Assembly (NCBI RefSeq): GCF_055900595.2
Contig: NZ_CM148325.1
Strand: one strand, 5' to 3'
DNA length: 64,000 bases
In this document: positions 27,561-64,000 of the stretch, in pieces
How the letters are laid out: every line of letters starts with the position of its first letter
How positions within the stretch are numbered: the stretch's first letter is position 1
Notes under the pieces: generated by a model
Seen by the model: only the letters and a program-made list of their open reading frames with translations
The model's database searches: none
What the model was told of the DNA's origin: nothing
Program-made: the position numbers and the translations under genes

Positions 27561-27668
27561 AATGGCATTCCTGATAAATGGCGCATATCCTTAGCGAGTC
27601 CATTTATCTAAATAAGACAAAGGTAATCACTTAACAACGATGCATACCTGATATTAATAATGGCAGGA

Positions 27669-29024: not shown

Positions 29025-29327
29025 AGATAAGTCACTTCCTTCCAGGTCATTATTTTAACTGGTTTTTATAACCAGTCTCATTTTATTAAGAAGGGTAATA
29101 ACTTGTGCACCTCTTTTGTCGAACATTGAGATTGGAAAAGAAATGCAGTTAAAAAGCTTATACGTTATTTATTTAGAATACACTACGACTTTTAGATTAC
29201 CATCATACGCATTAAGAATAATCCACAGCAATAAGTGATTAGTATCACAGATTTATCGCGTATATATCATTTTTTTGTGACTTATTTATTAAAGGAATAA
29301 GAAAGGAAATTTGAATTAAAGACAAAG

Positions 29328-29350
29328 GCGCAGTACAGAAAGTACTGCGC
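29328..29350 (-). terminator. putative terminator hairpin downstream of ybaT
   Basis: perfect 9-bp inverted repeat gcgcagtac-agaaa-gtactgcgc just 3' of the ybaT stop. Confidence 0.45.
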
Positions 29351-29361
29351 GCAGAGAGGTT

Positions 29362-30654: not shown

Positions 30655-30656
30655 GA

Positions 30657-31589
30657 TCAGCCCTTAAACACGTTATAGCCGAGTTGCTTAGCGACCGATG
30701 CCACCATTTTTTGACCGCGAACACTGTTGCCTTCTTCGTCCAGCGGTGGTGAGAACGCGGCAATTCCCATCACGCCAGGGACGACCGCCAGAATACCGCC
30801 ACCTACACCGCTTTTGCCCGGTAAACCAACGCGATACGCCCAGTCACCGGAGCGACCATACAGCCCTTCCATCATCATTTCGGCCAGAATGTACGGCACG
30901 TTGTCGGCCTGAAGAACGCGTTTATGCGTCAGCGGATTCACACCACCCGCCGCCAGCGTCGCGCCAAGCGTTGCCAGTTCAATAGTATTGAGGAGCGTGG
31001 AGCACTGACGGGTATACACGTCACAGGCTTCCATTGCATCACAATAGAGATATCCGGCGGAGTACAGCAGCCAGGCTATGGCCCGGTTATGGAAGTTGGT
31101 TGTTTATTCCGACTGGTTGACTTCATCAGAGAGCGCTACCTGCTCACCAGCCAGTTGTTGTTGGATATGTAAAATTCGCTGCCAGCGTTGTTCGGCATTT
31201 TCAGCGTTAATCAGGCTGGTGGTGGCAATAGCGCCAGCATTTACCAGTGGCGAAAGCGGTTTGCCGCCATGCAACTCTAAGGCGATAACCGAGTTAAAGG
31301 GCAATCCGGTCGGGTCAGCGCCAATTTTGTCCTGTACCGCCTGCGGGCCGACATCTTCTAACGCGAGGGCTAACGTACAGACTTTTGAAATGGATTCCAG
31401 CGCAAAGCGGTAATCACTGTCACCCGCGCTAAAGACTTTACCATCGCAGGTCACGATAGCCACTGCCGCCAGTTGACTGGGCACATTCGCCAGAAAGGGA
31501 ATGTAATCGGCATTTTGTCCGCCGTTAAGTGAGTGAAATTGGGTGTAAGCCTGATCCACTGCCTGCTGTAATGTGTTTGCATCTAACAT
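30657..31589 (-). pseudogene. glsA: glutaminase 1 gene interrupted by one in-frame TAA (codon 162); otherwise full length
   Basis: ORFs 31104..31589 and 30657..31034 are in the same frame and together give the 310-aa glutaminase; minus-strand reads tcg gaa TAA aca acc. Confidence 0.8.
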
Positions 31590-31780
31590 CTTTTGTTAAC
31601 TCCTTTTTATAGATGCGGGAGGGGATTCCTCACCCCGGTGCCGATTTTCAGGCATCCTGATTTAACTTAGCACCCGCGACTTAACTACAGGAAAACAAAG
31701 AGATAAATGTCTAATCCTGATGCAAATTGAGCCGATTTTTTAATCTTTACGGACTTTTACCCGCCTGGTTTATTAATTTC

Positions 31781-31799
31781 TTGACCTTCCCCTTGCTGG
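31781..31799 (+). promoter_or_regulatory. copA promoter -35 hexamer and left half of the CueR operator, cut off at the prophage junction
   Basis: TTGACCTTCCCCTTGCTGG matches the copA promoter/CueR box recalled from E. coli K-12, but the right half of the dyad and the -10 are replaced by different sequence from about 31800. Confidence 0.55.
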
Positions 31800-31868
31800 G
31801 GACAAAGAACTGCGTGGTGTAAAATAACACCACGCAATATCAATAAGTTACATAACCACTTTAACTCT

Positions 31869-32882
31869 CTACCTCCCTTTTTCCTCAAAATGTGGACACT
31901 CAATGGACATATCACATAGCGGATTATGCATCACAGCATCGCTTAAATAATCCGGCGAAAAATGCGCATAAGTCATTGTCTGAGATATATCTGCATGACC
32001 GAGGATTTTTTGAAGAGAAATAATATTCCCCCCATTCATCATAAAATGGGTGGCAAATGTATGCCTCAATACATGAACCGCTTGACCGTCCGGCAAATTA
32101 GGCTTAGCCACCTTCAGTTTCAGCCTAAACCATTTATAACTCACCCGAAATAAACGCCCCTCCTTGCGATGTTTTACAAGCCTAACAACATCATCAGAAA
32201 CAGGAACAACCCGACGCTTATTATTTTTTGTGAAATTAAATACAACCTTATTACCGATAATATGTTCCCCCATTAGCTGATATGCTTCATTCCAGCGACA
32301 GCCTGTAGACAACAAAAGGACAGCCATTCGGTAATAATCTCCCGAACCCTTGCAGATAGAAAGAAACGCACCAATCTCTTCATGATTAAGATAAGCCATC
32401 TCTGGGGTTTTTTCCTTGAGGCGAGGAAGCGACAATACAGGGTTACTACCGTGATATTCACCAATCTCTGCCATAGCCTTTAACGCAGCGCTAAACGCAA
32501 AAAGATCATGGTTGATTGTAGATGCCTTAACCCCTTGATCGAGACGGCGCGATCTATATTCAGCAACCATGCGTTCATCAATCTCGTACATCATAGGGTC
32601 ACCCATATCAAGACAAATACACTGGAGGTTATTCAGTCTACGATTCGCGTAATCCTTGTGACGACCTATCAGTAACCACCACGTCGCAATGAAATCGCTT
32701 AAATATCGCTTGTCCAGAAGATTACCGAAAACATCAACAGAAGGGCGATCAGCAAGAACTTCGCGTTCAAATGCTACAGCCAGATTTTTTTTCTCAAACT
32801 TCCGACGAATGCGCCTTCCCTTACTTCCGTCGGGTCGAATGTCCACAAAATAGCGACCATCTTCGAGCTTCTTAATTGACAT
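31869..32882 (-). CDS. int: P2-family tyrosine integrase
   Basis: MSIKKLEDGRYFVDIRP... close to P2 Int N-terminus; C-terminal R..H..R..Y catalytic region (HVLRHTFATH, MTYAHF); ORF track start 32912 probably too far upstream. Confidence 0.9.
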   Translation of the reverse strand: MSIKKLEDGRYFVDIRPDGSKGRRIRRKFEKKNLAVAFEREVLADRPSVDVFGNLLDKRYLSDFIATWWLLIGRHKDYANRRLNNLQCICLDMGDPMMYEIDERMVAEYRSRRLDQGVKASTINHDLFAFSAALKAMAEIGEYHGSNPVLSLPRLKEKTPEMAYLNHEEIGAFLSICKGSGDYYRMAVLLLSTGCRWNEAYQLMGEHIIGNKVVFNFTKNNKRRVVPVSDDVVRLVKHRKEGRLFRVSYKWFRLKLKVAKPNLPDGQAVHVLRHTFATHFMMNGGNIISLQKILGHADISQTMTYAHFSPDYLSDAVMHNPLCDMSIECPHFEEKGR

Positions 32883-32951
32883 AAGAAGACCCTCCAACAG
32901 TCCATTCTCCATCTTGAAAACAGATAGAGAAAACGTATTCCTTATAAAGAG

Positions 32952-33251
32952 TTAACCAGTCTGTTTCCCTGATTGGGGTGACGTTGTTTCGACGTGCCCA
33001 CAGTGTGCGAGAGCCGGGGCTATTTGCCCGTGTTCTGGGTCGATGCGGTCATACATAAACCAATTCTGATACTTATGAAAACGGGGGTGACCAAATATCT
33101 TAATTGCAGATTCCAATGTCATCTTAGATTTGTCACGCTCATAGCCGTGATAGGTTGTGTAATTAAGCCCTACTAAATCAACAAATTGCTGTTTTGTTAG
33201 CCTTTCCGAATCTCGCATGATCGCTAACTTTTCACCTTGAGTATTTGACAT
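32952..33251 (-). CDS. C: P2 C-type immunity repressor
   Basis: 99 aa, MSNTQGEKLAIMRDSERLTKQQFVDL...GQIAPALAHCGHVETTSPQSGKQTG closely resembles P2 C. Confidence 0.9.
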   Translation of the reverse strand: MSNTQGEKLAIMRDSERLTKQQFVDLVGLNYTTYHGYERDKSKMTLESAIKIFGHPRFHKYQNWFMYDRIDPEHGQIAPALAHCGHVETTSPQSGKQTG

Positions 33252-33345
33252 ATTTACGAGTACTCCATATAGTTACGCAAAAACAACATTCCTAGCCTAA
33301 AACGGCAAAACACCGTCAAAGGCCGATTAGGCTAAGCAAGCCTCA

Positions 33346-33993
33346 ATGAATGGCAACCTTGGAGTGTATCAAAAAATGGCAAAACAACGAGATTTTGAAC
33401 AAATCACGACACATCAGCATTGCCGTCTCTATCCATTAGACGGCTACATCACGATGAACGTGTGCAAAATGAGTTCAACGCAGGCTGGACGCATACGTGA
33501 TATGAGTCTGAGCGACTTACAACAACAGGAGTTTGTTAGCCCAGAGGAGTTTGCATACATCACGGGGCGCACCTACAAAGCAGCCAAAAACATCATGGAC
33601 CGAAACGAAAGCCTGCTTATTAAGGAATACGCCACGCCAGACGCAACACGACCTAAGCGATTTATCAGACTCCAGCACTACTGGGCCGCAATTATCAACA
33701 ACAAAGCATCGCTGACACCACGCGAGCATCTATTTATCAATGAGATTCGAAACAACAAAACGCTTTACCGCGAGATGATGAAAATCAATCTCAAGATTCG
33801 CGAAGGGCGAGAAGTCTCGAAAAAAAACCAAGATACTCCCATCAATCGCAATCAGCGGCATAACACCAAAAGGAGTTTTCCCATGTGCGACCTGAGCAAA
33901 GCAGAGCTAATTGCAATCATATTGTTTGCCATAGATTTTGGTTTTCTTTTGAGCGGCGCAATTCTCCTTCCTGCAATTAACAGGAAAAATTAA
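33346..33993 (+). CDS. Cox/Apl-like HTH excision and switch regulator; start uncertain, C-terminal hydrophobic tail
   Basis: segment EFAYITGRTYKAAKNIMDRNESLLIKEY resembles Cox/Apl HTH; divergent from C; probable true start near 33502. Confidence 0.45.
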   Translation: MNGNLGVYQKMAKQRDFEQITTHQHCRLYPLDGYITMNVCKMSSTQAGRIRDMSLSDLQQQEFVSPEEFAYITGRTYKAAKNIMDRNESLLIKEYATPDATRPKRFIRLQHYWAAIINNKASLTPREHLFINEIRNNKTLYREMMKINLKIREGREVSKKNQDTPINRNQRHNTKRSFPMCDLSKAELIAIILFAIDFGFLLSGAILLPAINRKN

Positions 33994-42757: not shown

Positions 42758-43340
42758 ACCGGAAGCAAATTATTAAAGAGCCGTGCCCGCTGGCACACCT
42801 TAAATATAGGTTTTAACCCCTATATTGTCAAACAAAATCCCTATATCATGAAGTAAAAAAGCACCTCCCGCGACCTCCCTTTCCGGTGCACGAAAGTGCA
42901 CAAATTTGCACAATTTTTTTGAACGACTTTTTGCCCTTCCGGCCCGTGTGGCGTCTGGATCCGTCGGGGATCCGTGCGTGCACGAAAAAAGGCCTTTTTC
43001 TGCGCGCAGGTGACGGGGGAACAGCCCGCGTTTCAGGGGGTAAATAGCATTCCCTGAACGATGTTGCAGTGACACAACAGAATGGCTGTATTTCTCACGC
43101 TGAGCGTGAAAAAGACGTAAGGGCTTTTGATTTGATGGGGTGAAAGATAAGGCCGTCAAAATCGCACTGAGGCAGCGAGAATATGTCGTCAGAGTTGCGG
43201 GGTTGCGTAAGCATCCGCCCGGCGATGATGGCTACAGGGCTGGAGATGTTGTGAAATTATCTGAAGGAATAACCAGCTTGCAGGAGAACCCGGGCAAAGT
43301 CAGAATAGCGGCAGGCATCAACTCAAAAGAGGATAATGTC

Positions 43341-43844
43341 ATGAGCCACTTTAATGATTTATGCCAGATCAATCGTGAAGCTGAAGAAAAACGCGCTGAG
43401 GCAGCTCAAATTTTGCGGGATGAAGCGGCAAGGCTGATTGATTTCTATGAAGAATGGCTGGGGCTTCCATCCATGTACTGGGAAGACGATGATGGCGACC
43501 TGCACCGCTACGTGGAGACAGGCTTGCCATGTAAGACAGCGGCGGATTTTAGTCCTCTTTCAGTCCACAATATCGCATCTGCACCAGACAATATTTTCCG
43601 CATGGCCGTACGAACCTGGGTTAAGTCATCTGACAGCAGCTACCCGGTAAGCGTGGTTATTGCACTTGAATTATATTCAGTAGATGCGGAACGGGTGTCT
43701 CTGAGAGTCCGGGTGGAAGACGATATTTCTGTTCGCGTATTTATCAATAAACCCAGCGAAGAAGCCTGGGGCGATGTTGTTATGCACATGAAAAAGCACA
43801 TCGCTAATCACCTGAAAAAGCGAGCGCCATCAGCACTTCGTTAA
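43341..43844 (+). CDS. hypothetical 167-aa protein (prophage cargo); alternative GTG start at 43140
   Basis: ATG at 43341 with aaagagga RBS; followed by bidirectional terminator before Q. Confidence 0.5.
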   Translation: MSHFNDLCQINREAEEKRAEAAQILRDEAARLIDFYEEWLGLPSMYWEDDDGDLHRYVETGLPCKTAADFSPLSVHNIASAPDNIFRMAVRTWVKSSDSSYPVSVVIALELYSVDAERVSLRVRVEDDISVRVFINKPSEEAWGDVVMHMKKHIANHLKKRAPSALR

Positions 43845-46782: not shown

Positions 46783-46806
46783 TGTCGGCATTCGCTTACA
46801 ACAAAC
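46783..46806 (+). promoter_or_regulatory. Ogr-type late promoter element (TGT-N12-ACA dyad) in the divergent P/O control region
   Basis: TGTcggcattcgcttACA at 46783-46800, about 70 nt upstream of the O start. Confidence 0.45.
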
Positions 46807-51685: not shown

Positions 51686-51830
51686 ACACCCCACCTGGGG
51701 AAATATCGGGATATGGAGCGACAGCCTCCTGGATGCACTGGAAACCTGCAACGCAGACAAACAGGCCATTGAGGCGCTGGAGCGCCGGAGACTCAACCGA
51801 CAGAACGGAGGGGGACATGCTGAAAAGTAA
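51516..51830 (+). CDS. lysC: o-spanin lipoprotein (LysC/Rz1-like), overlapping lysB in another frame
   Basis: lipobox LLTGC after signal peptide; Pro-rich; overlapped arrangement as in P2. Confidence 0.7.
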   Translation: MNSFAKLLRRMSAPALFLTTVLLTGCANTRNAPLPAPSFRFIPAGLTTGTRPPPFPEHPTWGNIGIWSDSLLDALETCNADKQAIEALERRRLNRQNGGGHAEK

Positions 51831-52281
51831 ATCCCTGAGCACACACATGAGTACAGCGTGCCGGTGGTGCAGGGCCAACCCGGAAAAGTTCACCGTGTTC
51901 ATTGAACGTGGCGGGATAGAGACCACCGGCGAGACGCCGACGTTCGTGTACAACTACCGGCTCGTGATGTTCGTCATGGACTACACGGGCGACCTGGACG
52001 ACCTGACGCTGCCGCTGATTGTCTGGCTGGCAGAGAACCAGCCGCAGTTGCTGCTTAATCCTGAGCGCAACGGCGATATTCAGTTCACGGCGGCCATTAA
52101 CGACGACGACAGTGCGGACGTGCTTTTTGAGGTGCCGCTGCGCGAGCGCGTGCGCGTCACCCGCAGGGATGACGGCACCCTCACAACGGAACATCTGCCG
52201 GAGCCGAAATCGCGCATCCCGCAGGACGGCGACTGGTCGCACATTCTGGAGGATGTGACGTGGGAGGTGACCGGTGACTGA
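51817..52281 (+). CDS. R: tail completion protein (P2 gpR-like)
   Basis: start MLKSKSL with RBS ggaggggg. Confidence 0.8.
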   Translation: MLKSKSLSTHMSTACRWCRANPEKFTVFIERGGIETTGETPTFVYNYRLVMFVMDYTGDLDDLTLPLIVWLAENQPQLLLNPERNGDIQFTAAINDDDSADVLFEVPLRERVRVTRRDDGTLTTEHLPEPKSRIPQDGDWSHILEDVTWEVTGD

Positions 52282-53843: not shown

Positions 53844-54740
53844 ATGCCTTCCGTTGACCTGTCACAGTTACCGGAACCGGCCATCATCGCGCAGCCGGAT
53901 TTTGAGTCCATCCTGGCAGACATTAAAACCATGATGGTGAGCTCCTTCCCGGAAGAATACCGCGCCGCCGTCACCCGTGCCCTTACTCTGGAATCCGAGC
54001 CATTGAACATCATTTCCCAGGCCATGGCCTTTCGTGAAATGCTGCTTCGCCAGCGCATCAATGAAGCCGCCCGCGCCTGCATGCTCAGCCACAGCCGGGG
54101 CAGTGACCTGGACAATCTGGCTGCCAACAACAACACCCGCCGCCTGGTCATTCATCCGGCCACTGATACCACGGAAGCAGTGATGGAAAGCGACACATCG
54201 CTGCGTCTGCGTGCCCAGTCAGCCTGGGACGGCCTGAGTGTGGCCGGACCGTCCGGCGCGTATGAGTATTTTGCCCGGAGCGCAAGCGGTCTTGTCCGTG
54301 ATGCGCGCGCCATCAGCCCGTCACCGGCCACAGTCACCGTCTCCATCCTGTCAGCAGACGGTGACGGCACCGCCGGTGAGGCGTTACTGAACACGGTGCG
54401 CACCGCCCTGAATGCCGAGAACGTGCGCCCGGTTGCCGACCGCCTGACTGTGCAGAGTGCTACCATCGTGAACTGGGAAATGGAAGCGAAGCTGTATTTT
54501 TATCCAGGGCCGGAGTCTGAACCCATGCTTGCGGCCGCTGACGCCGCTTTCCGTGCATGGCTGGCAGACCAGGGCCGTATCGGTCAGGATGTGGCCCTGT
54601 CAGCCATCACTGCAGCGCTGCATGTTCACGGTGTCCAGCGCGTTGAGGTCATAAAACCCACGCAGAACATCACCATCAGTGACACTCAGGCAGCCAGATG
54701 TACCACATTCAGCATCAGCGAAGGAGGACGCAATGAGTGA
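53844..54740 (+). CDS. J: baseplate protein J
   Basis: 298 aa at the J position. Confidence 0.85.
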   Translation: MPSVDLSQLPEPAIIAQPDFESILADIKTMMVSSFPEEYRAAVTRALTLESEPLNIISQAMAFREMLLRQRINEAARACMLSHSRGSDLDNLAANNNTRRLVIHPATDTTEAVMESDTSLRLRAQSAWDGLSVAGPSGAYEYFARSASGLVRDARAISPSPATVTVSILSADGDGTAGEALLNTVRTALNAENVRPVADRLTVQSATIVNWEMEAKLYFYPGPESEPMLAAADAAFRAWLADQGRIGQDVALSAITAALHVHGVQRVEVIKPTQNITISDTQAARCTTFSISEGGRNE

Positions 54741-55461
54741 CAGGAAAAAAACAGACAGCGCACAGCACAGTACATCACTGCTTCCACCGTCCGCAGGGCC
54801 ATTCATGCGCGCCACAGAGGCGACAGGAGTACGCATCAGTACCATACCGGTGGACGCCGACACCCTGTGGTCGCCGGACCGCTGCCCTGCTCACCTCCTG
54901 CCCTACCTTGCATGGGCATGTTCCGTTGACCGCTGGGACCGCAACTGGCCGGAAGAGACCAGACGACAGGTGATTGGCCAGTCCTGGAAGGTACACCGCC
55001 AGAAAGGAACGGTCAGCGCACTGAGGGAAACAGCCGCAGCATTCGGTTATGAGATGACCATCAGTGAATGGTGGGAGCATGGAGGGCAGCCGGGCACCTT
55101 TACTGTGACCATCGGGGCAGACACTCAGGGCATCGGCCCTGAAACATGGCTGGAGATGGAGGATCTGCTCAATGATGCACGTCCGGTTTCACGTCATATG
55201 ACGGGGCTTTATGCCGCCCTGCGTTCTGGCGTGACGGTTTACTGCGCTGCGGGAGCAGGCTGTGATGAGCTTGTAACCATTCACCAGAAAGCTCGCGCCT
55301 CCCTGGCGGGCCAGGTGACCATCATCGCAGCAGGAGACACACACACAACCGACAGTGTGACCGTACTGCCGGGGGTTCCGTCAGGTATGTACGGGGAGAT
55401 CTGTATCCGTACCGGCGCAGGTATATTCGTGAGTGAGATTGTGGAGGTTATCACCTTATGA
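54733..55461 (+). CDS. I: baseplate/tail protein I
   Basis: start MSDRKKTD with RBS aaggagg, overlapping J stop. Confidence 0.8.
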   Translation: MSDRKKTDSAQHSTSLLPPSAGPFMRATEATGVRISTIPVDADTLWSPDRCPAHLLPYLAWACSVDRWDRNWPEETRRQVIGQSWKVHRQKGTVSALRETAAAFGYEMTISEWWEHGGQPGTFTVTIGADTQGIGPETWLEMEDLLNDARPVSRHMTGLYAALRSGVTVYCAAGAGCDELVTIHQKARASLAGQVTIIAAGDTHTTDSVTVLPGVPSGMYGEICIRTGAGIFVSEIVEVITL

Positions 55462-56573
55462 ACACCGATTTTTATTCCGTTCTGACGGATGCCGGGCTGA
55501 AAAAACTGGCGGCAGCCGCAGCATCAGGGAATCAGATGAAAATCACCCATATGGCTGTAGGCGACGGAAACGGAAAAGCCGTAACACCCGGCAGGGCCGA
55601 CACCAGGCTTGTCAGGGAAAAATACCGTGCGCCACTGAACAGTCTGGAAGAAGACACAGAGAGACCGGGGCATGTTATCGCAGAAATGGTGATACCTGAA
55701 AAACAGGGAGGGTGGTGGATCAGAGAATTCGGATTATTCGACGAAGACGGCGGAATGATTGTTACAGGCAAATTTCCTGACACATGGAAGCCTGCACCTG
55801 GTCAGGGTGGAGCACGACTGATATCAGTGAAAGTGGTTGTGGCAGTATCACATACAGAAAACATTGTGCTGAAAGTGGATCCTTCTGTTGTCATGGCAAC
55901 CCGGGAATGGGTGAACACAAAAGCAGAGCAGTTAAAGAAAGAGCTCAGACAACCTGATGCAACCACCAAAACAAAAGGCATTGTTCAGCTTAGCAGTGAC
56001 ATCAACAGCACCTCTGAAACGCAGGCTGCCACCCCCGGAGCGGTAAAAGCCGTGAATGATCGTGTGGACGGAAAACAGGACGCGGATCCCACGCTCACAT
56101 CTCTGTCCGGGAAAAATGCACAGCAACTGAGGCAGCTTCTGGGGCTGGGCACGCTTGCCACCCTGAACAGGGGCACCGGTTCAGGGAATGTGCCGGACAT
56201 GAGTCACTTTGCGAGTAAAAAAGCAGACTACGGTTACCAGTGTTTTCCTGGCGGCATAATGATCCAGTGGCTGCGGATCCCCTCAGACCACACAGAAAGA
56301 GCTGTCAGTCAGGAAGCCCGGGTGGCACTAAGCGGCGTGCGACTGTTTTCAGTGGAGGGTAACTGGAACGGTAATAACATGATTAAGACCCTGGCAAACT
56401 ACCAGTGGCCGAGAGTTTTCGGGGCAATTTATGCGACCGTTGCAACCAGGAATCACGGATCTGCATGGCGAGTATATCCGGTGTCCGCGAACAAGGATGT
56501 GCGTGTCGTATCCATTGCCTGGGCGGGAGAAGGTACAGATGACACTTATGTGGTTGGGGTGGGAAGAGTATGA
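55458..56573 (+). CDS. H: tail fibre protein (gpH-like conserved N-terminus, short divergent C-terminal receptor-binding region)
   Basis: N-terminus MNTDFYSVLTDAGLKKLAAAAASGN..ITHMAVGDGNG resembles P2 H; 371 aa versus ~670 in P2. Confidence 0.8.
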   Translation: MNTDFYSVLTDAGLKKLAAAAASGNQMKITHMAVGDGNGKAVTPGRADTRLVREKYRAPLNSLEEDTERPGHVIAEMVIPEKQGGWWIREFGLFDEDGGMIVTGKFPDTWKPAPGQGGARLISVKVVVAVSHTENIVLKVDPSVVMATREWVNTKAEQLKKELRQPDATTKTKGIVQLSSDINSTSETQAATPGAVKAVNDRVDGKQDADPTLTSLSGKNAQQLRQLLGLGTLATLNRGTGSGNVPDMSHFASKKADYGYQCFPGGIMIQWLRIPSDHTERAVSQEARVALSGVRLFSVEGNWNGNNMIKTLANYQWPRVFGAIYATVATRNHGSAWRVYPVSANKDVRVVSIAWAGEGTDDTYVVGVGRV

Positions 56574-57016
56574 AAATGATGTGGTCGCCGTCTGTGGGCG
56601 GTTTTTTTGGTGAAGACAGCAGCCATATACCGGAAGATGCGGTGGAGGTTGATGAATCGATGTGGAGCAGGATGATGGAGGGACAACTTGAGGGAAAAAT
56701 TATCGTTAACGGCCCTGACGACCTGCCTGTTCTGGAAGAGCGTCCGGGACCGGGGCCAGAAGAATACCGGCATCAGGCTCGCCTTGAGCTTGCTGACCTT
56801 CGCCGACAGGGGCTGGAACACATAGAGTCGATGCGCTGGCGTGACAAAGCGGTCATGAACAGGCTGGGAGAAGAGGAGAAGCAGGAGTATAACGCCTGGC
56901 TTGACTGGCTCGACGCGCTTGACAGTACGGACATATCAGGGGCACCGGATGTGGTGTGGCCGGTGATGCCCGTCACGGTGGTTCCTGAACATCCTCAGAA
57001 AAAATTGCCGGAGTGA
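56570..57016 (+). CDS. tail fibre assembly chaperone (Tfa/gpG-like)
   Basis: C-terminal ...YNAWLDWLDALD...VVWPVMP resembles the conserved Tfa C-terminus. Confidence 0.65.
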   Translation: MKMMWSPSVGGFFGEDSSHIPEDAVEVDESMWSRMMEGQLEGKIIVNGPDDLPVLEERPGPGPEEYRHQARLELADLRRQGLEHIESMRWRDKAVMNRLGEEEKQEYNAWLDWLDALDSTDISGAPDVVWPVMPVTVVPEHPQKKLPE

Positions 57017-57022
57017 ACAGCC

Positions 57023-57050
57023 TCCGGCCTGAGACTGCACTCAGGCCGGA
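57023..57050. terminator. bidirectional terminator hairpin between convergent tfa and U
   Basis: 11-bp stem tccggcctgag / ctcaggccgga. Confidence 0.55.
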
Positions 57051-57057
57051 AATTCTG

Positions 57058-57504
57058 TTATCTGCCAGCATTGCGGATGATACCCGAAAGCATATCAGAC
57101 ACCGACGGCATCATTCGCTCCCGCAAATCCTCATCACAGCGTTCCATACTGACAGTGAACTCAATTTTTTTGGCCTTACCGTGGCGGTCAAGTTCGCTTC
57201 GCGTTGTGCGGACAGCCGTTATCACATACATGCCGTATATCTGCCCCACACCGTCAATCAGCGGCCATGGGCGGCCAGTGTAAGCCTGCGTCGTTAAAAG
57301 GCTGAGGGAAACCTCACCGCCGGTAATTTCGGGATAAAGCACACCGGACAACGTGATCTGGTCGTCACCCGCCCCGATATACTGCCAGCTGGCCGAACGA
57401 TTGATGCGTTCATTTTTAACGTGGCGCCAGGTTTTATTATGTTGCAGTTGTTGATGAGGCAGCGTGCGCAACTCAAAAACAAACATGCCGTAAATCATCA
57501 TCAT
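57058..57504 (-). CDS. U: tail protein U
   Basis: 148 aa; MMMIYGMFVFELRTLPHQ...ITLSGVLYPEITGG...GRPWPLIDGVGQIYGMYVI resembles P2 U. Confidence 0.85.
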   Translation of the reverse strand: MMMIYGMFVFELRTLPHQQLQHNKTWRHVKNERINRSASWQYIGAGDDQITLSGVLYPEITGGEVSLSLLTTQAYTGRPWPLIDGVGQIYGMYVITAVRTTRSELDRHGKAKKIEFTVSMERCDEDLRERMMPSVSDMLSGIIRNAGR

Positions 57505-57515
57505 GCGAGGTACTC

Positions 57516-60500
57516 CTAATCTCTGTCACGGAAACTACCGACTGTCTGGCGGATACGGCGTTCCATTTCCGCACGGACGGCATCACCCACCATTTTTGCC
57601 AGTTCGCGCGGGTTTTGCGTGTGAACATCATGCAGGTGAATATGCAGTTCGCCAGTTAATCCCCATGGTGCCGGATCACTCTGACGCGGTCGGGGCGATG
57701 CGGGGGATATGGGCTGGCGCACAGCCTCAACCACCGGACGGGATGTTGCCGTTACGACGGGTGTCATTACCGGCGCAATATTGCCGGACACTACCGGTTT
57801 AATTACCGGGGAGAGCGTCGGTATAACATCGCCAGCCATAACCGGTTTGATCGCTGGCGAAATAACCGGAGCAACAGACTCAGCCATGACGGAACTGACA
57901 GGCTGAGGCGCTCTCACTATGCCAGCATCGATAACCAGCATGAGCTCGCGTACTGCCTCAAGGACAGGACGGGATATTGCCGCCATCACTGGTGTCATTA
58001 GCGGGGAGAACGTCGGCATGACATCGTGAGTCATAACCGGTTTGATCACCGGCGAAACCACCGGCGTAATATTACCGGACAGTACCGGACGGACGACCGG
58101 AGGAATAACCGGCACATTATTCACGGACACCACCGGCTTCACGACCGGCGACACGTTCGCCGTGGTGGATATCAGCGGCGAAACACTGACAGGCGGTGGC
58201 GCTGGCAGCGGTGGCAACGAAGGCACACTGACCGACGGCACCTGCGGCAGTCTGACAGGTGGCTCACTGACACTACCCGGTAACAGGGAAGCTGCGCGGT
58301 TAAAGCGTTCCTCCTTCCACTCACCACGAACGGCCAGCGCTTCCGGCAGGTTTTTAAAGATAATATCGCCGGGACCAGTGCGTTTTTTCGCCTGTTTCGC
58401 CTCATCCAGCAGGCCACCGGTGTTATCGACGATTTTATTCAGGCGACGCATGGTGCCGGTATTCTCCCCCGTCAGCGGAGCAGTTGCTGCAGGTGCAGGT
58501 ACTGGCGGCTTTTTGTCTTTGTCATTTTGCGGCGGATTAATGACATTAACATCCGCCAGGAGCATGGCGGCTTTCTCGTTCAGCAGCTCCTTCTGCTTCA
58601 GCTCTTCCGCCTTTTTCCGGGCGCGCTCAACCGCCGACGGAATCAGCCCGAGTTTTTCCAGCACCCGGGTTAATGAGTCAATCAGCAGCGTAACCGGACC
58701 GGTCACCAGATTGCTGATAAACTCCCCGACCTTCTGCCCGAACGTCCGCCCGGCTTCCGTGCACTTGTCCAGCTCATCCTTTGTTGTGCTTACCGGCGCG
58801 AACAAATCCACGAACCACTGCCACACACGCCCGATTGTCTGCCCGACATACTCAAACAATGGTCCCAGTGGTGCCACAGCCTCGCGCAGTGGCGTAAGCC
58901 CCTGCCACAGGCCGGACAAGAACCCGCCCACGACAGCCTTCAGCTGGTCCCAGTGCCGCCAGATAAGCACTGCCGCACCGACCAGTGTCGCCACCACAAG
59001 GCCCACCGGACTTAACAGAAAACCCAGCGCCCCGCCAAGTGCGCCCACCGCACCACTCACCATCCCCCACAGTGCGGGCAGACCTGACAGTCTGAGCGCC
59101 AGTATTCCGATACCGCGCCCCAGTGAAATCAGTGCGCCGCCAGGTGAAGTGAACGCAGCCAGCAGACCACCACGCAGCGCGCCAAGTCCCGCCTGCACAC
59201 CACGAAGCCGCCCCGCAACTACGCCCAGCAGTGCAGCAAACCGTCCGGCACCGGAGGTGATACCGACAAACAGCACGCGCCAGCCACCGATACCGCCCAG
59301 CGGACCACCGAGTACGCCGCGCAGCTGCGTCAGTAACGGCAGCGCACGACCGAGGCCGGATGTGCCGGTCAGCAGGGCAAACCCAAGACGCAGTTTTGCC
59401 AGCGGCCCCATCAACACACCAGTGGCAAGTGACAGCGCCCCCATGGCCGCAACCGCAGCCAGCAGTGCACCACCGGCAATCAGCAGTTGTTTTGTCAGTT
59501 CAGGGTGCGCCTGGGCCAGCGCGGTGACTTTCGCAATAACCCGGGTGAACGACTGCGTGACAGAACGCAGCGGCCCGTCAACGAGGTCAGCGACACGGAT
59601 ACGCAGCCCTTCCCATGCGCTGTTCAGTGATTTCAGGTCGCCGTCCAGGTTGTCCGCCATGATTCTGGCGTTTTCTTCCAGTTCGCCGTTCGCTGCCTGA
59701 ATCTCACGCGTCAGGCGCGGCAGGTTTTTTTCGCCTGCCTGTTCAACCAGGCTCATCAGGGAGACATACGCCTCCTGCCCGGCAATATCTGAAAAGAACG
59801 AGACTTTTGCCGCGTTACCGTATTTACGGGTGGCCTGATACAGCTCATACAGGATATCTTCCATCGGGCGCATGTTCCCGTAAGCATCCTGCGTTTCCAC
59901 GCCCAGCTGTTTCAGCGCCTTTGCTGCCGCTTTAGGCGGGTTCACAAGGCGGGACAGACTGGAGCGCAGCGCCGTACCAGCATCACTGCCACGTATCCCC
60001 ATCGACCCAAGCAACCCGGTCATGGCTGCGGTCTGTTCAAGAGACAGACCGAGTGAGGCGGCGACCGGTCCCGTATATTTCATCGTCTCACCAAGCCCGC
60101 GCAGGTCGGTATTGGTGCGGGTGAACGTTGCGGCCAGCGTGTCACCCACGCGGTTCATCTGGTCGGCAGACAACCCGAACTGCGTAAGGATATTTGAGCT
60201 GATATCGGCCGTCTGACCGAGGTCCATGCCGCTGGCCGTTGCCAGATTCAGCACGCCGGGAAGAGCCGCCTGTATCGCCTGCGGCGTGAACCCCGCCATG
60301 GCAAGGAACGCCTGACCGCTGGCAGCATCACCTGCGGTAAACTGCGTTTCGGAGCCGAGTTTAAGCGCCTGTTCGCGCAGCGCCTTAAACTGCGGACTGT
60401 TTTTGTCAATACGGGTCAGCGCCTGGACGCGCGACATCTCCTTACCAAAACTGACCGCCGGTTGCAGGAAACGCCCGGCCGCATAGCCACCTGCCGCTGC

Positions 60501-61094
60501 CGTGCCGACTGCCGTAAATCCACCCGCTTTCAGTTTTCCCGCCATCTCCTGAGCGCGGAAATATTGCTGGCGTGCCTGCGTGACGCGTGCCAGAGTCTGC
60601 CGTTCACGTTCCAGCTGTTCGTTGTATTGCTGTGTTCGCCGTATGGCCTGTTGAATGGTGTTGTCACTGCCGGAAAGCGCAATACCGTGACGCCGCAGCT
60701 CACCACCCAGTTCGCGCATTCGCTGAACTTCACGCGCACGGACCTCATTGAGACGCTCAAGTTTGAGGCTCAAATCGTTCATCAGCTTTTTCTGTTTGTC
60801 AGACAGCACGGTTCCGGCGCGCTGAATTTGCTGAAGTGCGCTTAACTGGCGTTGTGCCCGGGCAATGCCGTTTCCGGCCTTGTTTGCAGCCTCGCGGGCG
60901 CGATCAAATGAACGGGCGTGGCGTTCCAGGTTTTTGATCGCACCCTGCGTTCTCTGTATGGAGTCGCCAAGCTGGCCCATCATGCGACGGGCGTTTTCGG
61001 TGGGACGGGTCAGCCTGTCAACAGCGCTGAAGGCGACCCGTATATCAAGCGTTTTCATGCTCTGCGTTCCCGCTGCGAAGGGCCGCCCGCTCAC
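57516..61094 (-). CDS. T: tail tape measure protein (gpT-like, 1,192 aa, with Pro/Val-rich tandem repeats near the C-terminus)
   Basis: long helical protein with a transmembrane-like glycine-rich central region; located between E and U. Confidence 0.85.
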   Translation of the reverse strand: MSGRPFAAGTQSMKTLDIRVAFSAVDRLTRPTENARRMMGQLGDSIQRTQGAIKNLERHARSFDRAREAANKAGNGIARAQRQLSALQQIQRAGTVLSDKQKKLMNDLSLKLERLNEVRAREVQRMRELGGELRRHGIALSGSDNTIQQAIRRTQQYNEQLERERQTLARVTQARQQYFRAQEMAGKLKAGGFTAVGTAAAGGYAAGRFLQPAVSFGKEMSRVQALTRIDKNSPQFKALREQALKLGSETQFTAGDAASGQAFLAMAGFTPQAIQAALPGVLNLATASGMDLGQTADISSNILTQFGLSADQMNRVGDTLAATFTRTNTDLRGLGETMKYTGPVAASLGLSLEQTAAMTGLLGSMGIRGSDAGTALRSSLSRLVNPPKAAAKALKQLGVETQDAYGNMRPMEDILYELYQATRKYGNAAKVSFFSDIAGQEAYVSLMSLVEQAGEKNLPRLTREIQAANGELEENARIMADNLDGDLKSLNSAWEGLRIRVADLVDGPLRSVTQSFTRVIAKVTALAQAHPELTKQLLIAGGALLAAVAAMGALSLATGVLMGPLAKLRLGFALLTGTSGLGRALPLLTQLRGVLGGPLGGIGGWRVLFVGITSGAGRFAALLGVVAGRLRGVQAGLGALRGGLLAAFTSPGGALISLGRGIGILALRLSGLPALWGMVSGAVGALGGALGFLLSPVGLVVATLVGAAVLIWRHWDQLKAVVGGFLSGLWQGLTPLREAVAPLGPLFEYVGQTIGRVWQWFVDLFAPVSTTKDELDKCTEAGRTFGQKVGEFISNLVTGPVTLLIDSLTRVLEKLGLIPSAVERARKKAEELKQKELLNEKAAMLLADVNVINPPQNDKDKKPPVPAPAATAPLTGENTGTMRRLNKIVDNTGGLLDEAKQAKKRTGPGDIIFKNLPEALAVRGEWKEERFNRAASLLPGSVSEPPVRLPQVPSVSVPSLPPLPAPPPVSVSPLISTTANVSPVVKPVVSVNNVPVIPPVVRPVLSGNITPVVSPVIKPVMTHDVMPTFSPLMTPVMAAISRPVLEAVRELMLVIDAGIVRAPQPVSSVMAESVAPVISPAIKPVMAGDVIPTLSPVIKPVVSGNIAPVMTPVVTATSRPVVEAVRQPISPASPRPRQSDPAPWGLTGELHIHLHDVHTQNPRELAKMVGDAVRAEMERRIRQTVGSFRDRD

Positions 61095-61571
61095 GCCAGG
61101 CGACCACCTCGCCGGGATCCATCAGGAAGATTTCAGCGGGAGACCAGTTGAAAATAACGGCGATATCCGCCACAAAGTCTTCAATATGCTCAAAGGGCAC
61201 GACGGTTATCAGCCTGCCGTCGCCGCCACGCTCTTCCCGCCAGAGTCCTGACCGGCCAAAAAATTAACCGCCACCCCGCACAGCTGAATAAAATCAGCGG
61301 ACCCCATGCGCTTAAGCAGAACCTCGTCCAGTCGCGGCGAAGTGACGCGCGGGAGTAACTCAAACATCGCGTCCGTTTTCATGTTCAGCACGTCAAGCAG
61401 TGACAGCCCGCGCAGTGAACCGGCCTGCTGTACAGCAGGCGTGATTTCCACATACGTGATTTTTTTGTTACCGAGCACAAGGGGCGTTTTCAGCGTCACG
61501 CCGCGCTCACTGGTCACGTCCGCCGCATCAGCACCGTCAGTAACAGGGGCAACAACCGGATTTTCTTTCAT
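61045..61571 (-). other. predicted E+E' product made by -1 programmed frameshift at TTTTTTG (61257-61263), extending to a TGA at 61045 and overlapping the T start
   Basis: hand translation of the -1 frame after the slippery heptamer gives ~70 more codons. Confidence 0.5.
61209..61571 (-). CDS. E: tail assembly chaperone E
   Basis: 120-aa ORF between FII and T containing a T6G slippery site near its 3' end. Confidence 0.8.
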   Translation of the reverse strand: MKENPVVAPVTDGADAADVTSERGVTLKTPLVLGNKKITYVEITPAVQQAGSLRGLSLLDVLNMKTDAMFELLPRVTSPRLDEVLLKRMGSADFIQLCGVAVNFLAGQDSGGKSVAATAG

Positions 61572-61621
61572 GAATAAAACCTCAAATCAGGGGGCGACGC
61601 CACGCGCCGCCGTGGAAAACA

Positions 61622-62140
61622 TTAACCACCAAGACCAATCGCCGAGCGCACGCGGTCCGGGAAGACGCTTTTGCCGTCCTTGCGTTCGATGTGGTTCAGT
61701 AAATCAATCTCCAGCACCGGACGGTCGTTAATGCTGAGTTTGTAGTAGGTACTTTTGACCGCATAGGTGTGAGACGTGACCTCACCCTGTTTGGCCTCCC
61801 CGGTATCAATTTCCGTCACGCGACCGCGAAGCTCAATCTCGTACAGGTCACTCTGTTCTTCATCGTTGTAGTACTCACCGACAAAGCGCAGCAGCGTACC
61901 GTCAATCGTTCCGCCGTACTTGAGGAACAGTTCGCGGGTCGGCCCGCCCATGGTGAAACTCGCATCCAGCGCGCCGTCATCCAGGCCAAGGTCGATATTT
62001 ACTGCACCGGCCATACCACCACCGCGATAGGCTTCCGTTTTACGGGTCAGTTTGGGGGCCGTGAAGCCGGTCACTCTGCCAATCTGGTTCACCCCGTCAG
62101 TAAACAGCGTGAACACCCTGAGATTTTTTGGTACGGCCAT
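61622..62140 (-). CDS. FII: tail tube protein FII
   Basis: 172 aa, position after the sheath gene. Confidence 0.9.
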   Translation of the reverse strand: MAVPKNLRVFTLFTDGVNQIGRVTGFTAPKLTRKTEAYRGGGMAGAVNIDLGLDDGALDASFTMGGPTRELFLKYGGTIDGTLLRFVGEYYNDEEQSDLYEIELRGRVTEIDTGEAKQGEVTSHTYAVKSTYYKLSINDRPVLEIDLLNHIERKDGKSVFPDRVRSAIGLGG

Positions 62141-63423
62141 TAAGCACCTCCAAGCGTCGCAAATGCAGGACCAAAGAATTCATCAGTAAACGTCTGGTAA
62201 AGTTCCATATCCTCAAGCGGCGGAACGGGCGTGTACTTGTAGCGGATACGCACGCGTCCCTGACGAAGTTCCGTGGTGCTGTTATCCACCACGTCATACC
62301 AGCACTCCGCACCAACGAGACGTCCTGACGTAACCAGCGCATCCAGTTTTGCGCGAATTGCGCTTAACACGTCTTTCACATTAGCAGGGGTCAGCGGGGC
62401 ATCAATCGTTTCAAACTGCGCTTCCGCAACAGAATCAGCCAGCACCTGAGCGGTTCGCGTGTACACCTCAAAGATATACGCCTTCGTTTCCGGCGTACGG
62501 TTGCCCCAGAAGCGGAAACCGTTACGGCGAATGATGGTGGTGATTTCCTTGTTGTTGAGATTGTTGGCATCGCTGTCTTCGGACTGAAGGGACCAGAACA
62601 CCGGGCTGGAAATACCCAGCACATTTCTTACCGGCACGTTGGACAGCGATTTATGCCAGCCCTGTTCGTGGTCAATACGTGCACGTAAACCGCAGGCGTA
62701 CGCCGCAGCCGGGAAGACCTCATTAGCGCCGGATTTCGGGTTATGGGCGATGAAGTCAGGCCAGAGCAGCATAAGTTCGCGCTCGTTAAATCTGGCGCGG
62801 TAGCTGATTGCATCAGCGGGCTTCTTGCAGTTGTGACAGCCCGCGTAGACAAATGCGCGAAGTTTTTCTGCAATTACACACAGGGATTTTGTGACAGCTT
62901 CAGTATCCAGTCCGGGCGCTGCGATGATGCGCGGACGGTAACCGATGGCATCATCCTGTTCAGCTATCAGAAGTGCATACATACCGGTATAATTACCGTC
63001 GTCATCCGTGCCACCAATGACATACTGGTCCTGCGTTTTGTGTGGGTATACAGGATGTGCATCTTCAGACTCATCAATACCAAAAAATGCCCTGTCTTCA
63101 GGATCCAGATGACCGAATGATGTAACTCCTGTATCCGGGGCGCCCTGAGAACTGGCATCAGGAACGCGCACCACAATCACCTTCGTGCTCACCTGGTCGG
63201 CGACAGCCTTAAGTGAACGGTACAGCGTGCCCTTTGTGCCGGTCTTACCCAGCACATCACTGACGCGGGTCAGCAGTATGGGTTTGTTCAGCGGGAACAG
63301 AGTTTCATCCGCGTCATCTGCCGTAGCCACAATACCAATAACACTGGAATCCACATCATTAATGGCGGTGGTAAGGCCGGTACTTTCCCTTACGCGCGCA
63401 CCATGAAAGCGTGTTTCACTCAT
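62140..63423 (-). CDS. FI: contractile tail sheath protein FI
   Basis: strong similarity to P2 FI (KLRAF, IDHEQGWHKSLSNV, RRNGFRFWGNRT, YKYTPVPPLE); likely start MSETRF at 63423. Confidence 0.9.
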   Translation of the reverse strand: MSETRFHGARVRESTGLTTAINDVDSSVIGIVATADDADETLFPLNKPILLTRVSDVLGKTGTKGTLYRSLKAVADQVSTKVIVVRVPDASSQGAPDTGVTSFGHLDPEDRAFFGIDESEDAHPVYPHKTQDQYVIGGTDDDGNYTGMYALLIAEQDDAIGYRPRIIAAPGLDTEAVTKSLCVIAEKLRAFVYAGCHNCKKPADAISYRARFNERELMLLWPDFIAHNPKSGANEVFPAAAYACGLRARIDHEQGWHKSLSNVPVRNVLGISSPVFWSLQSEDSDANNLNNKEITTIIRRNGFRFWGNRTPETKAYIFEVYTRTAQVLADSVAEAQFETIDAPLTPANVKDVLSAIRAKLDALVTSGRLVGAECWYDVVDNSTTELRQGRVRIRYKYTPVPPLEDMELYQTFTDEFFGPAFATLGGA

Positions 63424-63583
63424 ATGTTTCACCCTTGTCTGGCTGGTTGATTTTGCGTAATCATTACCCACGATGCCGCCGGTATCATCTCCTGCCCGTT
63501 CTCACCGTTCGCTTACAACAAACAGCCGTTCACCACGGTCGCACGCCGTGAAAACATGACGGGACACACCACGAGGGCAGACC

Positions 63584-64000
63584 ATGACCGACCTGTTAAT
63601 CAACGTTCCGTCACCGGATATCGAAATCACCATCAACAACAACAGACTCCGTAACGTCACGGAGCGGCTCATGACGCTGTCACTGACCGACAACCGGGGC
63701 TTTGAGGCGGACCGCGTCACCCTGACCATTGACGACGCGGACGGGCAGCTTCAGCTGGCACAGCGCGGCGCACGCCTGAACGTGATGATTGGCTGGCGCG
63801 GGGAGGCGCTGGTTAACAAGGGTGTCTACATCGTTGATGAAGTGACGTGGGAAGGCCCGCCGGACAAACTGACCATCACCGCCAGCAGCGCCGATTTTCG
63901 CGAAGAGTTCAACGTGAAGCGTGAAGTCTCCTGGCACGACGTGACGGTAAAACAGGTTGTGTCAGCCATCGCGCACCGCTACGGCCTGAAAGCACAGATA
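63584..64000 (+). CDS. D: tail protein D, N-terminal part (continues beyond window)
   Basis: MTDLLINVPSPDIEITINNNRL... resembles the P2 D N-terminus; ATG at 63584. Confidence 0.75.
   Translation, partial: MTDLLINVPSPDIEITINNNRLRNVTERLMTLSLTDNRGFEADRVTLTIDDADGQLQLAQRGARLNVMIGWRGEALVNKGVYIVDEVTWEGPPDKLTITASSADFREEFNVKREVSWHDVTVKQVVSAIAHRYGLKAQI

Follow-up and report, generated by a model that had tools for sequence, protein, structure and literature searches.

In bacteriophage P2 (NC_001895), the tail genes FI, FII, E, E+E', T, U and D and the activator gene ogr all run rightward from the promoter pF, with D closing the pF operon. In the P2-like prophage studied here the block from the sheath gene FI to U is inverted, which puts D out of reach of transcription from pF. 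How did this arrangement come about, and from where could D be expressed? The earlier note on this DNA, which implied that the layout was unusual, offered a lineage with a rearranged tail module, a recent inversion or an assembly artefact as explanations, and it called for a comparison with P2-like genomes. We analysed 64,000 nt (the window) of contig NZ_CM148325.1 from assembly GCF_055900595.2, in which the interval of interest, 57017-63583, fills exactly the space that separates the stop codon of tfa from the start of D. The prophage sits between glsA/ybaT and copA in an Escherichia coli-like chromosome.

Gene content and orientation of the tail module

Gene identities were assigned from PHROGs matches, supplemented by Pfam domains on identical genes in public contigs. 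The rightward V-W-J-I-H-tfa block closes with tfa (56570-57016, plus strand), a P2 G-like tail fibre assembly gene (phrog_188, E = 3.7e-33; Caudo_TAP on the identical gene in two contigs). The minus-strand genes occupy 57058-63423 and are opened by FI, which encodes a tail sheath of 427 aa (62140-63423, ATG at 63423; phrog_23, E = 3.5e-119; Phage_sheath_1). Reading leftward, it is followed by the tail tube gene FII (61622-62140; phrog_55, E = 5e-54; Phage_tube), a gpE-like tail assembly chaperone gene (61209-61571; phrog_103, E = 4.1e-31), the gpT tape measure gene encoding 1180 aa (57516-61058, ATG at 61058; phrog_28, E = 4.8e-186; PhageMin_Tail on the 1180-aa call in one contig) and, as the final gene of the operon, U, encoding a gpU-like tail protein (57058-57504; phrog_76, E = 1.5e-67; Phage_P2_GpU).

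The baseplate hub gene D (‘late control D’) begins on the plus strand at 63584. Its 5' part (63584-64000) was recognized from its translation and from Phage_GPD on the identical gene in four contigs; the gene continues past the window end and encodes 363 aa in identical prophages. In these prophages an 83-aa ogr/Delta gene (Ogr_Delta in the same four contigs) lies directly 3' of D and is followed by a terminator, the same order as in P2, and TAAAAT overlaps the D stop codon. The ogr gene of the window prophage itself is beyond the window end and is known from these identical prophages. The RefSeq annotation of E. coli LH50-c gives the same tail layout, with D and then ogr.

Clustered homologues of sheath, tube, gpE chaperone, tape measure, gpU and gpD thus make up a P2-like (Peduoviridae) contractile tail module, without the P2 operon structure in which FI to D are co-oriented from pF. 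The strands given in the earlier note for FI, FII, E, T and U (minus) and for D (plus) hold to the base, the divergent gap it put at ~160 bp being 160 bp, and its account of FI-FII-E-E'-T-U-D as one rightward P2 operon agrees with NC_001895. It was also right that everything else keeps the P2 orientation, namely V, W, J, I, H, tfa, Q/P, O-N-M-L and int. A search for tandem repeats inside the tail block found none.

The E/E' frameshift signal is intact. At 61263-61257 the E frame contains T_TTT_TTG, a slippery heptamer in X_XXY_YYZ register, and the -1 frame runs without interruption to a stop at 61045, overlapping the beginning of T (start codon at 61058). From the sequence and the list of open reading frames, this would give an E' extension by -1 frameshift at 61045-61263 (minus strand), a 51-aa reading frame with the Pfam domain Phage_P2_GpE. 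The P2 record annotates the homologous E+E' -1 frameshift, at the same heptamer.

Only 41 bp separate the converging tfa and U genes, and neither an invertase gene nor an alternative fibre cassette is found there. Two overlapping terminator-like hairpins occupy 57007-57050: an 11-bp stem read on the plus strand (57023-57050) and a 7-bp stem followed by TTTTTT read on the minus strand (57028-57007). The strong hairpin that the earlier note had placed between U and tfa is the first of these, with a fold of -29.5 kcal/mol (z = -5.3) that none of 200 shuffles equalled in stability. A leftward FI-FII-E/E'-T-U unit would stop at these hairpins.

A standard layout in P88-type Peduoviridae

Phage P88 (Peduoviridae, Xuanwuvirus; NC_026014) and Citrobacter phage PhiSM have gene order and strands identical to those of the window, with V, W, J, I, H and tfa rightward, U, T, E', E, FII and FI leftward, and D and ogr rightward. 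The FI-D gap of P88 measures ~157 bp and carries TCT-N12-ACA at the same offset as the window. Protein identities to P88 are 78% for FI, 85% for U, 78% for D and 62% for E; against P2, U is 49% and E 35% identical, and the homologous genes of the P2 F operon as a whole are 33-55% identical. At the nucleotide level the window and P88 share ~75% identity over 46% of a 9-kb query taken from the tail region, the only region compared; the right end of the prophage lies outside the window. The usual ICTV genus criterion is about 70% nucleotide similarity over the full genome length. The two also differ: in P88 the interval from tfa to U carries an invertase and an alternative fibre cassette, both absent from the window, and its tape measure and sheath are shorter (935 versus 1180 aa and 394 versus 427 aa, respectively).

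The same layout extends well beyond P88. Using tblastn gene maps of the window, six representatives and 80 IMG/VR loci, we found U-T-E'-E-FII-FI opposite to V-W-J-I-H and D-ogr, with U converging on the fibre module, in five genera: Xuanwuvirus (P88), Novemvirus (phiT5282H), Senquatrovirus (SEN5), Reipivirus (Kp4867-1) and Reginaelenavirus (Kp4874-2). SEN4/5, phiT5282H, Kp4867-1 and 3LV2017/Kp4874-2 share the inverted FI-U block, the divergent D-ogr pair and one dyad at the same offset, and are more distant from the window (FI 51-66% identical). Their hosts differ, being Salmonella for SEN4/5, Enterobacter for phiT5282H and Klebsiella for Kp4867-1 and 3LV2017/Kp4874-2. In all 80 IMG/VR loci retrieved with FI, D diverges from FI and J/I/H lie opposite FI-U.

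Twenty-six complete E. coli genomes are colinear with the window over at least 80% of 56500-64000, with identity up to 99.8%, and the exact FI protein occurs in 451 blocks of a contig collection. Identical FI genes with the same neighbours are present in four independent NCBI assemblies, in at least three different chromosomal neighbourhoods. With a chimeric U+D query, U and D were adjacent in 390 of 492 phage records, and 48 extra places pointed to split layouts; read from these place counts, about 10% of P2-like GenBank phage records appear to share the flipped layout. Two candidates were rejected as members: the Fels-2 record gives the canonical order, and a published table puts D and U of Burkholderia KS5 on the same strand, which is also canonical.

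The flipped tail layout is therefore ordinary, and the unusualness implied by the earlier note falls by the refuting condition that the note itself set, since the same orientation is standard in a characterized P2-like subgroup (P88, PhiSM, SEN4/5) and, recurring in five genera, is no anomaly. P88 can be induced and lyses many strains of E. coli, PhiSM shows spontaneous activity (PMC6456863), and SEN4/5 form plaques and have contractile tails (PMC5261728). In the context of the tail block, the papers on P88 (PMC5285337) and SEN4/5 (PMC5261728) and two surveys of P2-like phages (PMC13100340; bioRxiv 10.64898/2026.02.27.708500) mention neither inversion, orientation, rearrangement nor synteny, and these four sources contain no description of the flipped layout or its regulation. 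The flipped sheath-to-U block is the fixed standard layout of a P88-type branch of the Peduoviridae, and this reading, together with the model of two transcription units developed below, is very likely correct.

A single Ogr-type dyad between FI and D

Late promoters activated by Ogr/Delta proteins have a TGT-N12-ACA dyad centred near -55, a weak -10 and no -35, and they require both the activator and the alpha subunit of RNA polymerase for transcription. The divergent FI/D control region (63424-63583, 160 bp), in which alignment across genera revealed conserved AT.AT and dyad columns, contains a single candidate site of this kind. The dyad, TCTCACCGTTCGCTTACA (T[G/C]T-N12-ACA, 63500-63517), has its centre 85.5 nt from the start codon of FI and 75.5 nt from that of D. 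Its left half-site is TCT in both the window and P88, as against the canonical TGT, and TCT-N12-ACA is also the variant found at the P/O site of P88.

Position and conservation set this site apart. All 79 related loci have exactly one T[G/C]T-N12-ACA in the FI/D gap, and its offset is the same throughout, with 85.5-89.5 nt to the start of FI; the half-sites are fixed across 12 spacer variants, and none of the 79 gaps contains a second dyad. Representatives of all five genera also have a single dyad. Where offsets were worked out (window, P88, phiT5282H and SEN5), the dyad lies 81.5-88.5 nt from the FI start and ~70-76 nt from D, so that the window has the P88-type gap, ~155-160 bp long with one such site ~82-89 nt from the FI start. 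In P2, ~83-86 nt separate the pF dyad from the start codon of FI downstream, matching the 85.5 nt of the window. Over the whole window, exact TGT-N12-ACA is no commoner than in shuffled sequence (13 observed, 15.4 expected); the count alone is thus uninformative, and only position and conservation carry weight.

The window prophage has a second region of the same design. In the divergent gap between P and O (terminase/scaffold), a pattern search located an exact TGT-N12-ACA dyad at 46783-46800, centred, from the start codons as read, 74.5 nt from that of P and 80.5 nt from that of O. It matches the FI/D dyad at 16 of 16 nt (TTCGCTTACAACAAAC), and the local alignment of the two regions scores 33, whereas 500 shuffles reach 23 at most. 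We considered and rejected the idea that the D-side promoter is a duplicate of the O-side one: the similarity in the window covers only the dyad and a short ribosome-binding stretch and is absent in P88. In P2 pP/pO, one annotated activator site lies 55.5 nt from each mapped start. P2 pP/pO and the FI/D region of the window are both divergent pairs ~155-175 bp apart with a single central dyad; the shared site is annotated from experiments in the former and deduced from sequence geometry and conservation in the latter.

By comparing offsets with those of mapped P2 late promoters, we predicted from the sequence two -10-like elements, each ~46 nt away from the dyad centre: AATGAT (63465-63460, minus strand) and AAACAT (63552-63557, plus strand), the latter weak at 3 of 6 matches. 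On the D side, most of the six representatives have a block of the form GCGC..CATG.AA.CAT (its CATG element is missing from phiT5282H), and in the window this block has the offset expected of a -10 from the mapped late promoters of P2. A sigma-70 consensus scan found no promoter in the FI/D gap, as expected if the promoters are activator-dependent, and this is not counted as positive evidence. No upstream plus-strand gene is present that could read through into D.

From these data we infer two divergent late units, FI-FII-E/E'-T-U leftward and D-ogr rightward, which most likely both start inside the 160-bp gap. Each predicted start, near 63453 for the leftward and 63564 for the rightward unit, would lie ~55 nt from the dyad at 63500-63517, at which an Ogr-type zinc-finger protein may switch on both units; the phage encodes such an Ogr/Delta activator, as seen in the identical prophages. 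The rightward unit would end at the terminator beyond the window. The FI/D gap thus probably works like P2 pP/pO, with one site driving FI to U in one direction and D-ogr in the other, a reading in which the promoters, their starts, Ogr dependence and two-way use of the site are all predictions.

Origin of the inverted block

In the history that we propose, an ancestral inversion would have reversed the promoter and FI-FII-E/E'-T-U while D and ogr stayed where they were, making two divergent transcription units of the late tail genes. Identity matrices of nine genomes, rather than a rooted phylogeny, suggest a single such event. In FI, FII, U and D, the phages with the inverted block generally resemble one another more than they resemble canonical P2, PHB48 and Fels-2; the exception is SEN5, for which FII and U stand at about the same distance from either group. 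The baseplate protein J of SEN5 is of the P2/186 type and groups with canonical phages, which shows that modules are exchanged. Whether the inversion carried the dyad-symmetric pF activator site upstream of the stranded D, so that one predicted Ogr site now fires two divergent late promoters, seems to us an evenly balanced proposition.

Of the three explanations in the earlier note, the rearranged lineage has stood, borne out by P88 and four further ICTV genera, the 80 IMG/VR loci and the 26 E. coli genomes. A recent inversion confined to this strain, or to this copy of the prophage, would account for the block being inverted relative to P2, 186-like PHB48 and Fels-2, yet we regard it as extremely improbable: the orientation recurs in every one of the 80 related loci and across five genera, with FI only 51-78% identical (tblastn), and the junctions are conserved and look functional, with a fixed-spacing dyad and a terminator, whereas a freshly flipped P2-type operon would strip D of its promoter or ribosome-binding context. 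Mis-orientation of the segment between repeats during assembly, which nothing favours beyond the difference from P2, deserves hardly any credence when the same junctions occur in the four independent assemblies (including contigs of 3.1 and 5.4 Mb), in the 26 complete chromosomes and in the virion-sequenced genomes of P88 and SEN5. Inverted repeats bracketing the block are confined to short, weak, chance-like pairs (the best 18 nt with 83% match, at 56951 and 63555); the longest inverted repeat in the region is at most 31 nt at 71% match, and none convincingly brackets the block. This lack of flanking crossover-like sites also counts against a switchable segment of the Gin/Cin/Hin type that flips the tail operon. 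A DNA invertase gene does adjoin U in P88 and FI in Fels-2, but both serve a tail-fibre cassette, and the short tfa-U gap of the window holds neither element; all relatives show a single orientation, and a flip would disconnect FI from its promoter geometry. We give such switching next to no weight.

A more serious alternative accepts the layout as standard for the lineage and reserves the dyad for FI, with D-ogr on a promoter of its own that is either Ogr-independent or served by a second, unrecognized activator site. The match between the dyad-to-FI spacing and P2 pF would fit a site that is chiefly the former pF site, the D-side -10 is weak, ogr has a separate promoter in P2, and the TAAAAT at the end of D may mean that part of the rightward unit is expressed independently. 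Against this stand the constancy of the dyad-to-D distance in the four phages measured, the recurrence of the D-side block at a late-promoter -10 offset, the lack of a second dyad in all 79 loci and the precedent of P2 pP/pO, where one site serves two divergent promoters. On balance we consider a separate D promoter rather unlikely and prefer the shared site.

Implications for P2-like phages

These results are mainly a caution that P2 is not a template for gene orientation throughout the Peduoviridae. The branch with an inverted sheath-to-U block is sizeable, being common among prophages of E. coli, Klebsiella, Enterobacter, Salmonella and Citrobacter, and annotators or scanning programs should not flag its layout as damage or mis-assembly. 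The predicted bidirectional late promoter is of modest biological interest and is easily testable in P88 or PhiSM. If the shared FI/D site is real, it would be a second unit of the pP/pO kind and would place ogr directly under an Ogr-activated promoter, and a symmetric activator site would have let an operon survive its own internal inversion.

Gene content and orientation of the tail region

J (53844-54740), I (between J and H), H (55458-56573) and the tail fibre assembly gene tfa (56570-57016) were placed on the plus strand by the ORF map and family searches. They are followed on the minus strand by genes for gpU (57058-57504), the tape measure protein T (57516-61058), gpE (61209-61571), the tube protein FII (61622-62140) and the sheath protein FI (62140-63423), each with a strong PHROGs match from the window gene and a Pfam domain (Phage_P2_GpU, PhageMin_Tail, Phage_P2_GpE, Phage_tube and Phage_sheath_1, respectively) read from the same gene on identical public contigs. 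The true start codon of FI is the ATG at 63423, and D, recognized by sequence and translation, begins on the plus strand at ATG 63584 and continues past the window end, so that 160 bp separate the two divergent genes. A hairpin with an 11-bp G+C-rich stem (57023-57050; -29.5 kcal/mol, z = -5.3) lies between the tfa and U stop codons and is overlapped by a second stem, with a T run next on the opposite strand. The earlier note had read these strands, the convergence of U on tfa and the divergence of D correctly, and its account of P2 agrees with NC_001895, where FI to D and ogr run rightward from pF.

An intact E/E' frameshift signal, T_TTT_TTG, stands at 61263-61257 in the correct register; from there the -1 frame of E' stays open as far as 61045 and thereby overlaps the start of T (61058). 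By gene content and frameshift signal the locus belongs to the P2-like tail module; the P2 operon structure is absent (FI-U on the minus strand, D on the plus strand), and the layout of Escherichia phage P88 is matched in every feature tested over the part of the genome compared. The tape measure protein, at 1180 aa, is longer than those of P88 (935) and P2 (815), and its C-terminal third holds a long Pro/Val-rich stretch; an IS21-family element splits the match to this region in E. coli GF60, and the annotation of E. coli LH50-c marks the gene as a pseudogene, incomplete. The sheath protein spans 427 aa versus 394 aa in P88-type homologues, implying an insertion of ~33 residues.

The flipped layout is ordinary in a known phage subgroup

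The nearest deposited phage is P88 (Peduoviridae, Xuanwuvirus; ~75% DNA identity), in which U, T, E', E, FII and FI share one strand and D lies on the other, immediately past FI. Representatives of four more ICTV genera carry the same flipped block (Novemvirus phiT5282H, Senquatrovirus SEN5, Reipivirus Kp4867-1 and Reginaelenavirus Kp4874-2); P2, the 186-like PHB48, Fels-2 and Burkholderia KS5 have the canonical layout. The FI protein retrieved 80 IMG/VR loci; D diverges from FI in every one of them, and J/I/H oppose FI-U wherever the sequence is long enough. When a chimeric U+D protein was queried against 50,697 phage records, 492 matched, with U and D adjacent on one strand in 390; the 48 extra match places give an indirect count suggesting that U and D are split in roughly one-tenth of matched records. 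Flipped-layout phages are viable: P88 can be induced and is lytic towards many strains of E. coli, PhiSM shows spontaneous activity (PMC6456863), and SEN4/5 form plaques and show a contractile tail by electron microscopy (PMC5261728).

The earlier note had proposed either a rearranged tail-module lineage or a recent inversion or assembly artefact. The first holds. This orientation is standard in P88-type phages, the very outcome that the note had named as refuting its anomaly, and the layout counts as normal for a recognized subgroup. Blocks of the contig collection that list the exact FI protein number 451, and the order ogr, D / FI, FII, E, E', T, U / tfa, H recurs in the four NCBI assemblies inspected, with the prophage adjoining at least three chromosomal neighbourhoods (ihfA/pheT, uvrC/pgsA and copA). 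In 26 complete E. coli chromosomes, colinearity with 56500-64000 extends over at least 80% of that interval, with identity reaching 99.8%, and the RefSeq annotation of LH50-c gives identical strands with an ogr/Delta-like gene past D. Such agreement rejects misassembly, and recurrence across five genera, the 80 IMG/VR loci and these chromosomes rejects a recent event. The inversion goes without mention in the P88 and SEN4/5 papers and in two large P2-like surveys; even so, the layout can be read directly from phages that have been deposited, classified and propagated in experiments.

A search of the region found no inverted repeats bracketing the FI-U block, and the 41 bp between tfa and U leave no room for an invertase gene. 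In P88 the space between these genes (25416-27564 of its genome) contains a DNA invertase as well as an alternative fibre/tfa cassette; in the window, 57017-57057 holds just the terminator region, and the prophage therefore has no fibre-switching system.

The window flank (glsA, ybaT) is 95-99% identical to E. coli across 5402 genomes, which indicates that the host is E. coli or a very close relative. Elsewhere, 5245-29024 looks like a giant adhesin island with type I secretion: a 6325-aa ORF (8583-27560, minus strand; G+C ~0.60 versus 0.47-0.50 in the flanks) neighbours a 720-aa ORF, a 391-aa ORF and a TolC family outer membrane protein gene, named from E. coli RefSeq matches. Coverage of 28000-33400 reaches 80% or more in only 4 of 5426 complete E. 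coli genomes.

A conserved predicted activator site between FI and D

The FI/D gap holds exactly one T[G/C]T-N12-ACA dyad, the type bound by Ogr/Delta late activators, at 63500-63517. A single dyad is present in 79/79 related loci, with the start codon of FI 85.5-89.5 nt away, invariant half-sites and twelve spacer sequences, and it recurs in representatives of all five genera; on the D side, the distance from its centre to the start codon is 69.5-76.5 nt in the window, P88, phiT5282H and SEN5. In P2 the pF site and the start codon of FI are ~83 nt apart, and the matching FI-side distance identifies the dyad as the former pF activator site, moved together with FI.

P2 has one activator site annotated for the divergent pO and pP promoters, its dyad centre, as placed here, 55.5 nt from each mapped start, and the window P/O gap has the same design (dyad 46783-46800). 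The window P/O and FI/D sites share 16/16 bases (TTCGCTTACAACAAAC), with a local alignment score of 33 against a maximum of 23 in 500 shuffles. When starts are placed 55 nt to the left and to the right of the FI/D dyad, they come with -10-like hexamers, AATGAT for FI and AAACAT for D, at offsets equal to those in mapped P2 late promoters.

D has no co-oriented gene upstream, so its transcription must begin within or very near the 160-bp gap. A separate D promoter independent of the dyad, the main rival, seems to us rather unlikely; from the conserved dyad, the pO/pP parallel and the hexamers we infer a bidirectional Ogr-activated control region. An Ogr-type activator bound there would drive both divergent units, FI-U being read leftward to the 57.0-kb hairpins and D-ogr rightward to a strong terminator past ogr. 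At the D-ogr junction, right of the window end (8706-8760 of L087, a public contig with identical prophage genes), the two genes lie only 43 nt apart. In P2, whose ogr is equipped with a promoter of its own, the spacing is 81 nt. The D stop codon is overlapped by a TAAAAT hexamer that might be the -10 of an ogr promoter.

Two further exact TGT-N12-ACA dyads were noted. That at 43062-43079 lies ~70 nt upstream of a 234-aa ORF (43140-43844; phrog_5091, function unknown) that separates the replication genes from the portal gene, in the tin/old slot of P2; this ORF may be a cargo gene turned on late. The other (51968-51985) falls within a gpR-like ORF (51733-52281), not between genes; it could be a chance occurrence or mark an internal late promoter serving the R-S-V block.

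Origin of the inversion

In FI, FII, U and D, flipped-layout phages are generally closer to one another than to canonical phages (FI and D, 55-85% identity within the group versus 47-58% to canonical phages), except that FII and U of SEN5 are about equidistant from both; the pattern is consistent with one old inversion in an ancestor of this tail module. SEN5 J shares 71-73% identity with the P2/186 type but only 54-56% with the P88 type, while its FI and D group with flipped-layout phages, which indicates that modules have been exchanged between the two layouts since. One breakpoint corresponds to the P2 G/FI intergenic slot, where fun(Z) lies in P2, and the other to the P2 U/D junction. We hypothesize that the symmetric dyad would have made the inversion tolerable, because it brought upstream of D a site that could be used in the other direction.
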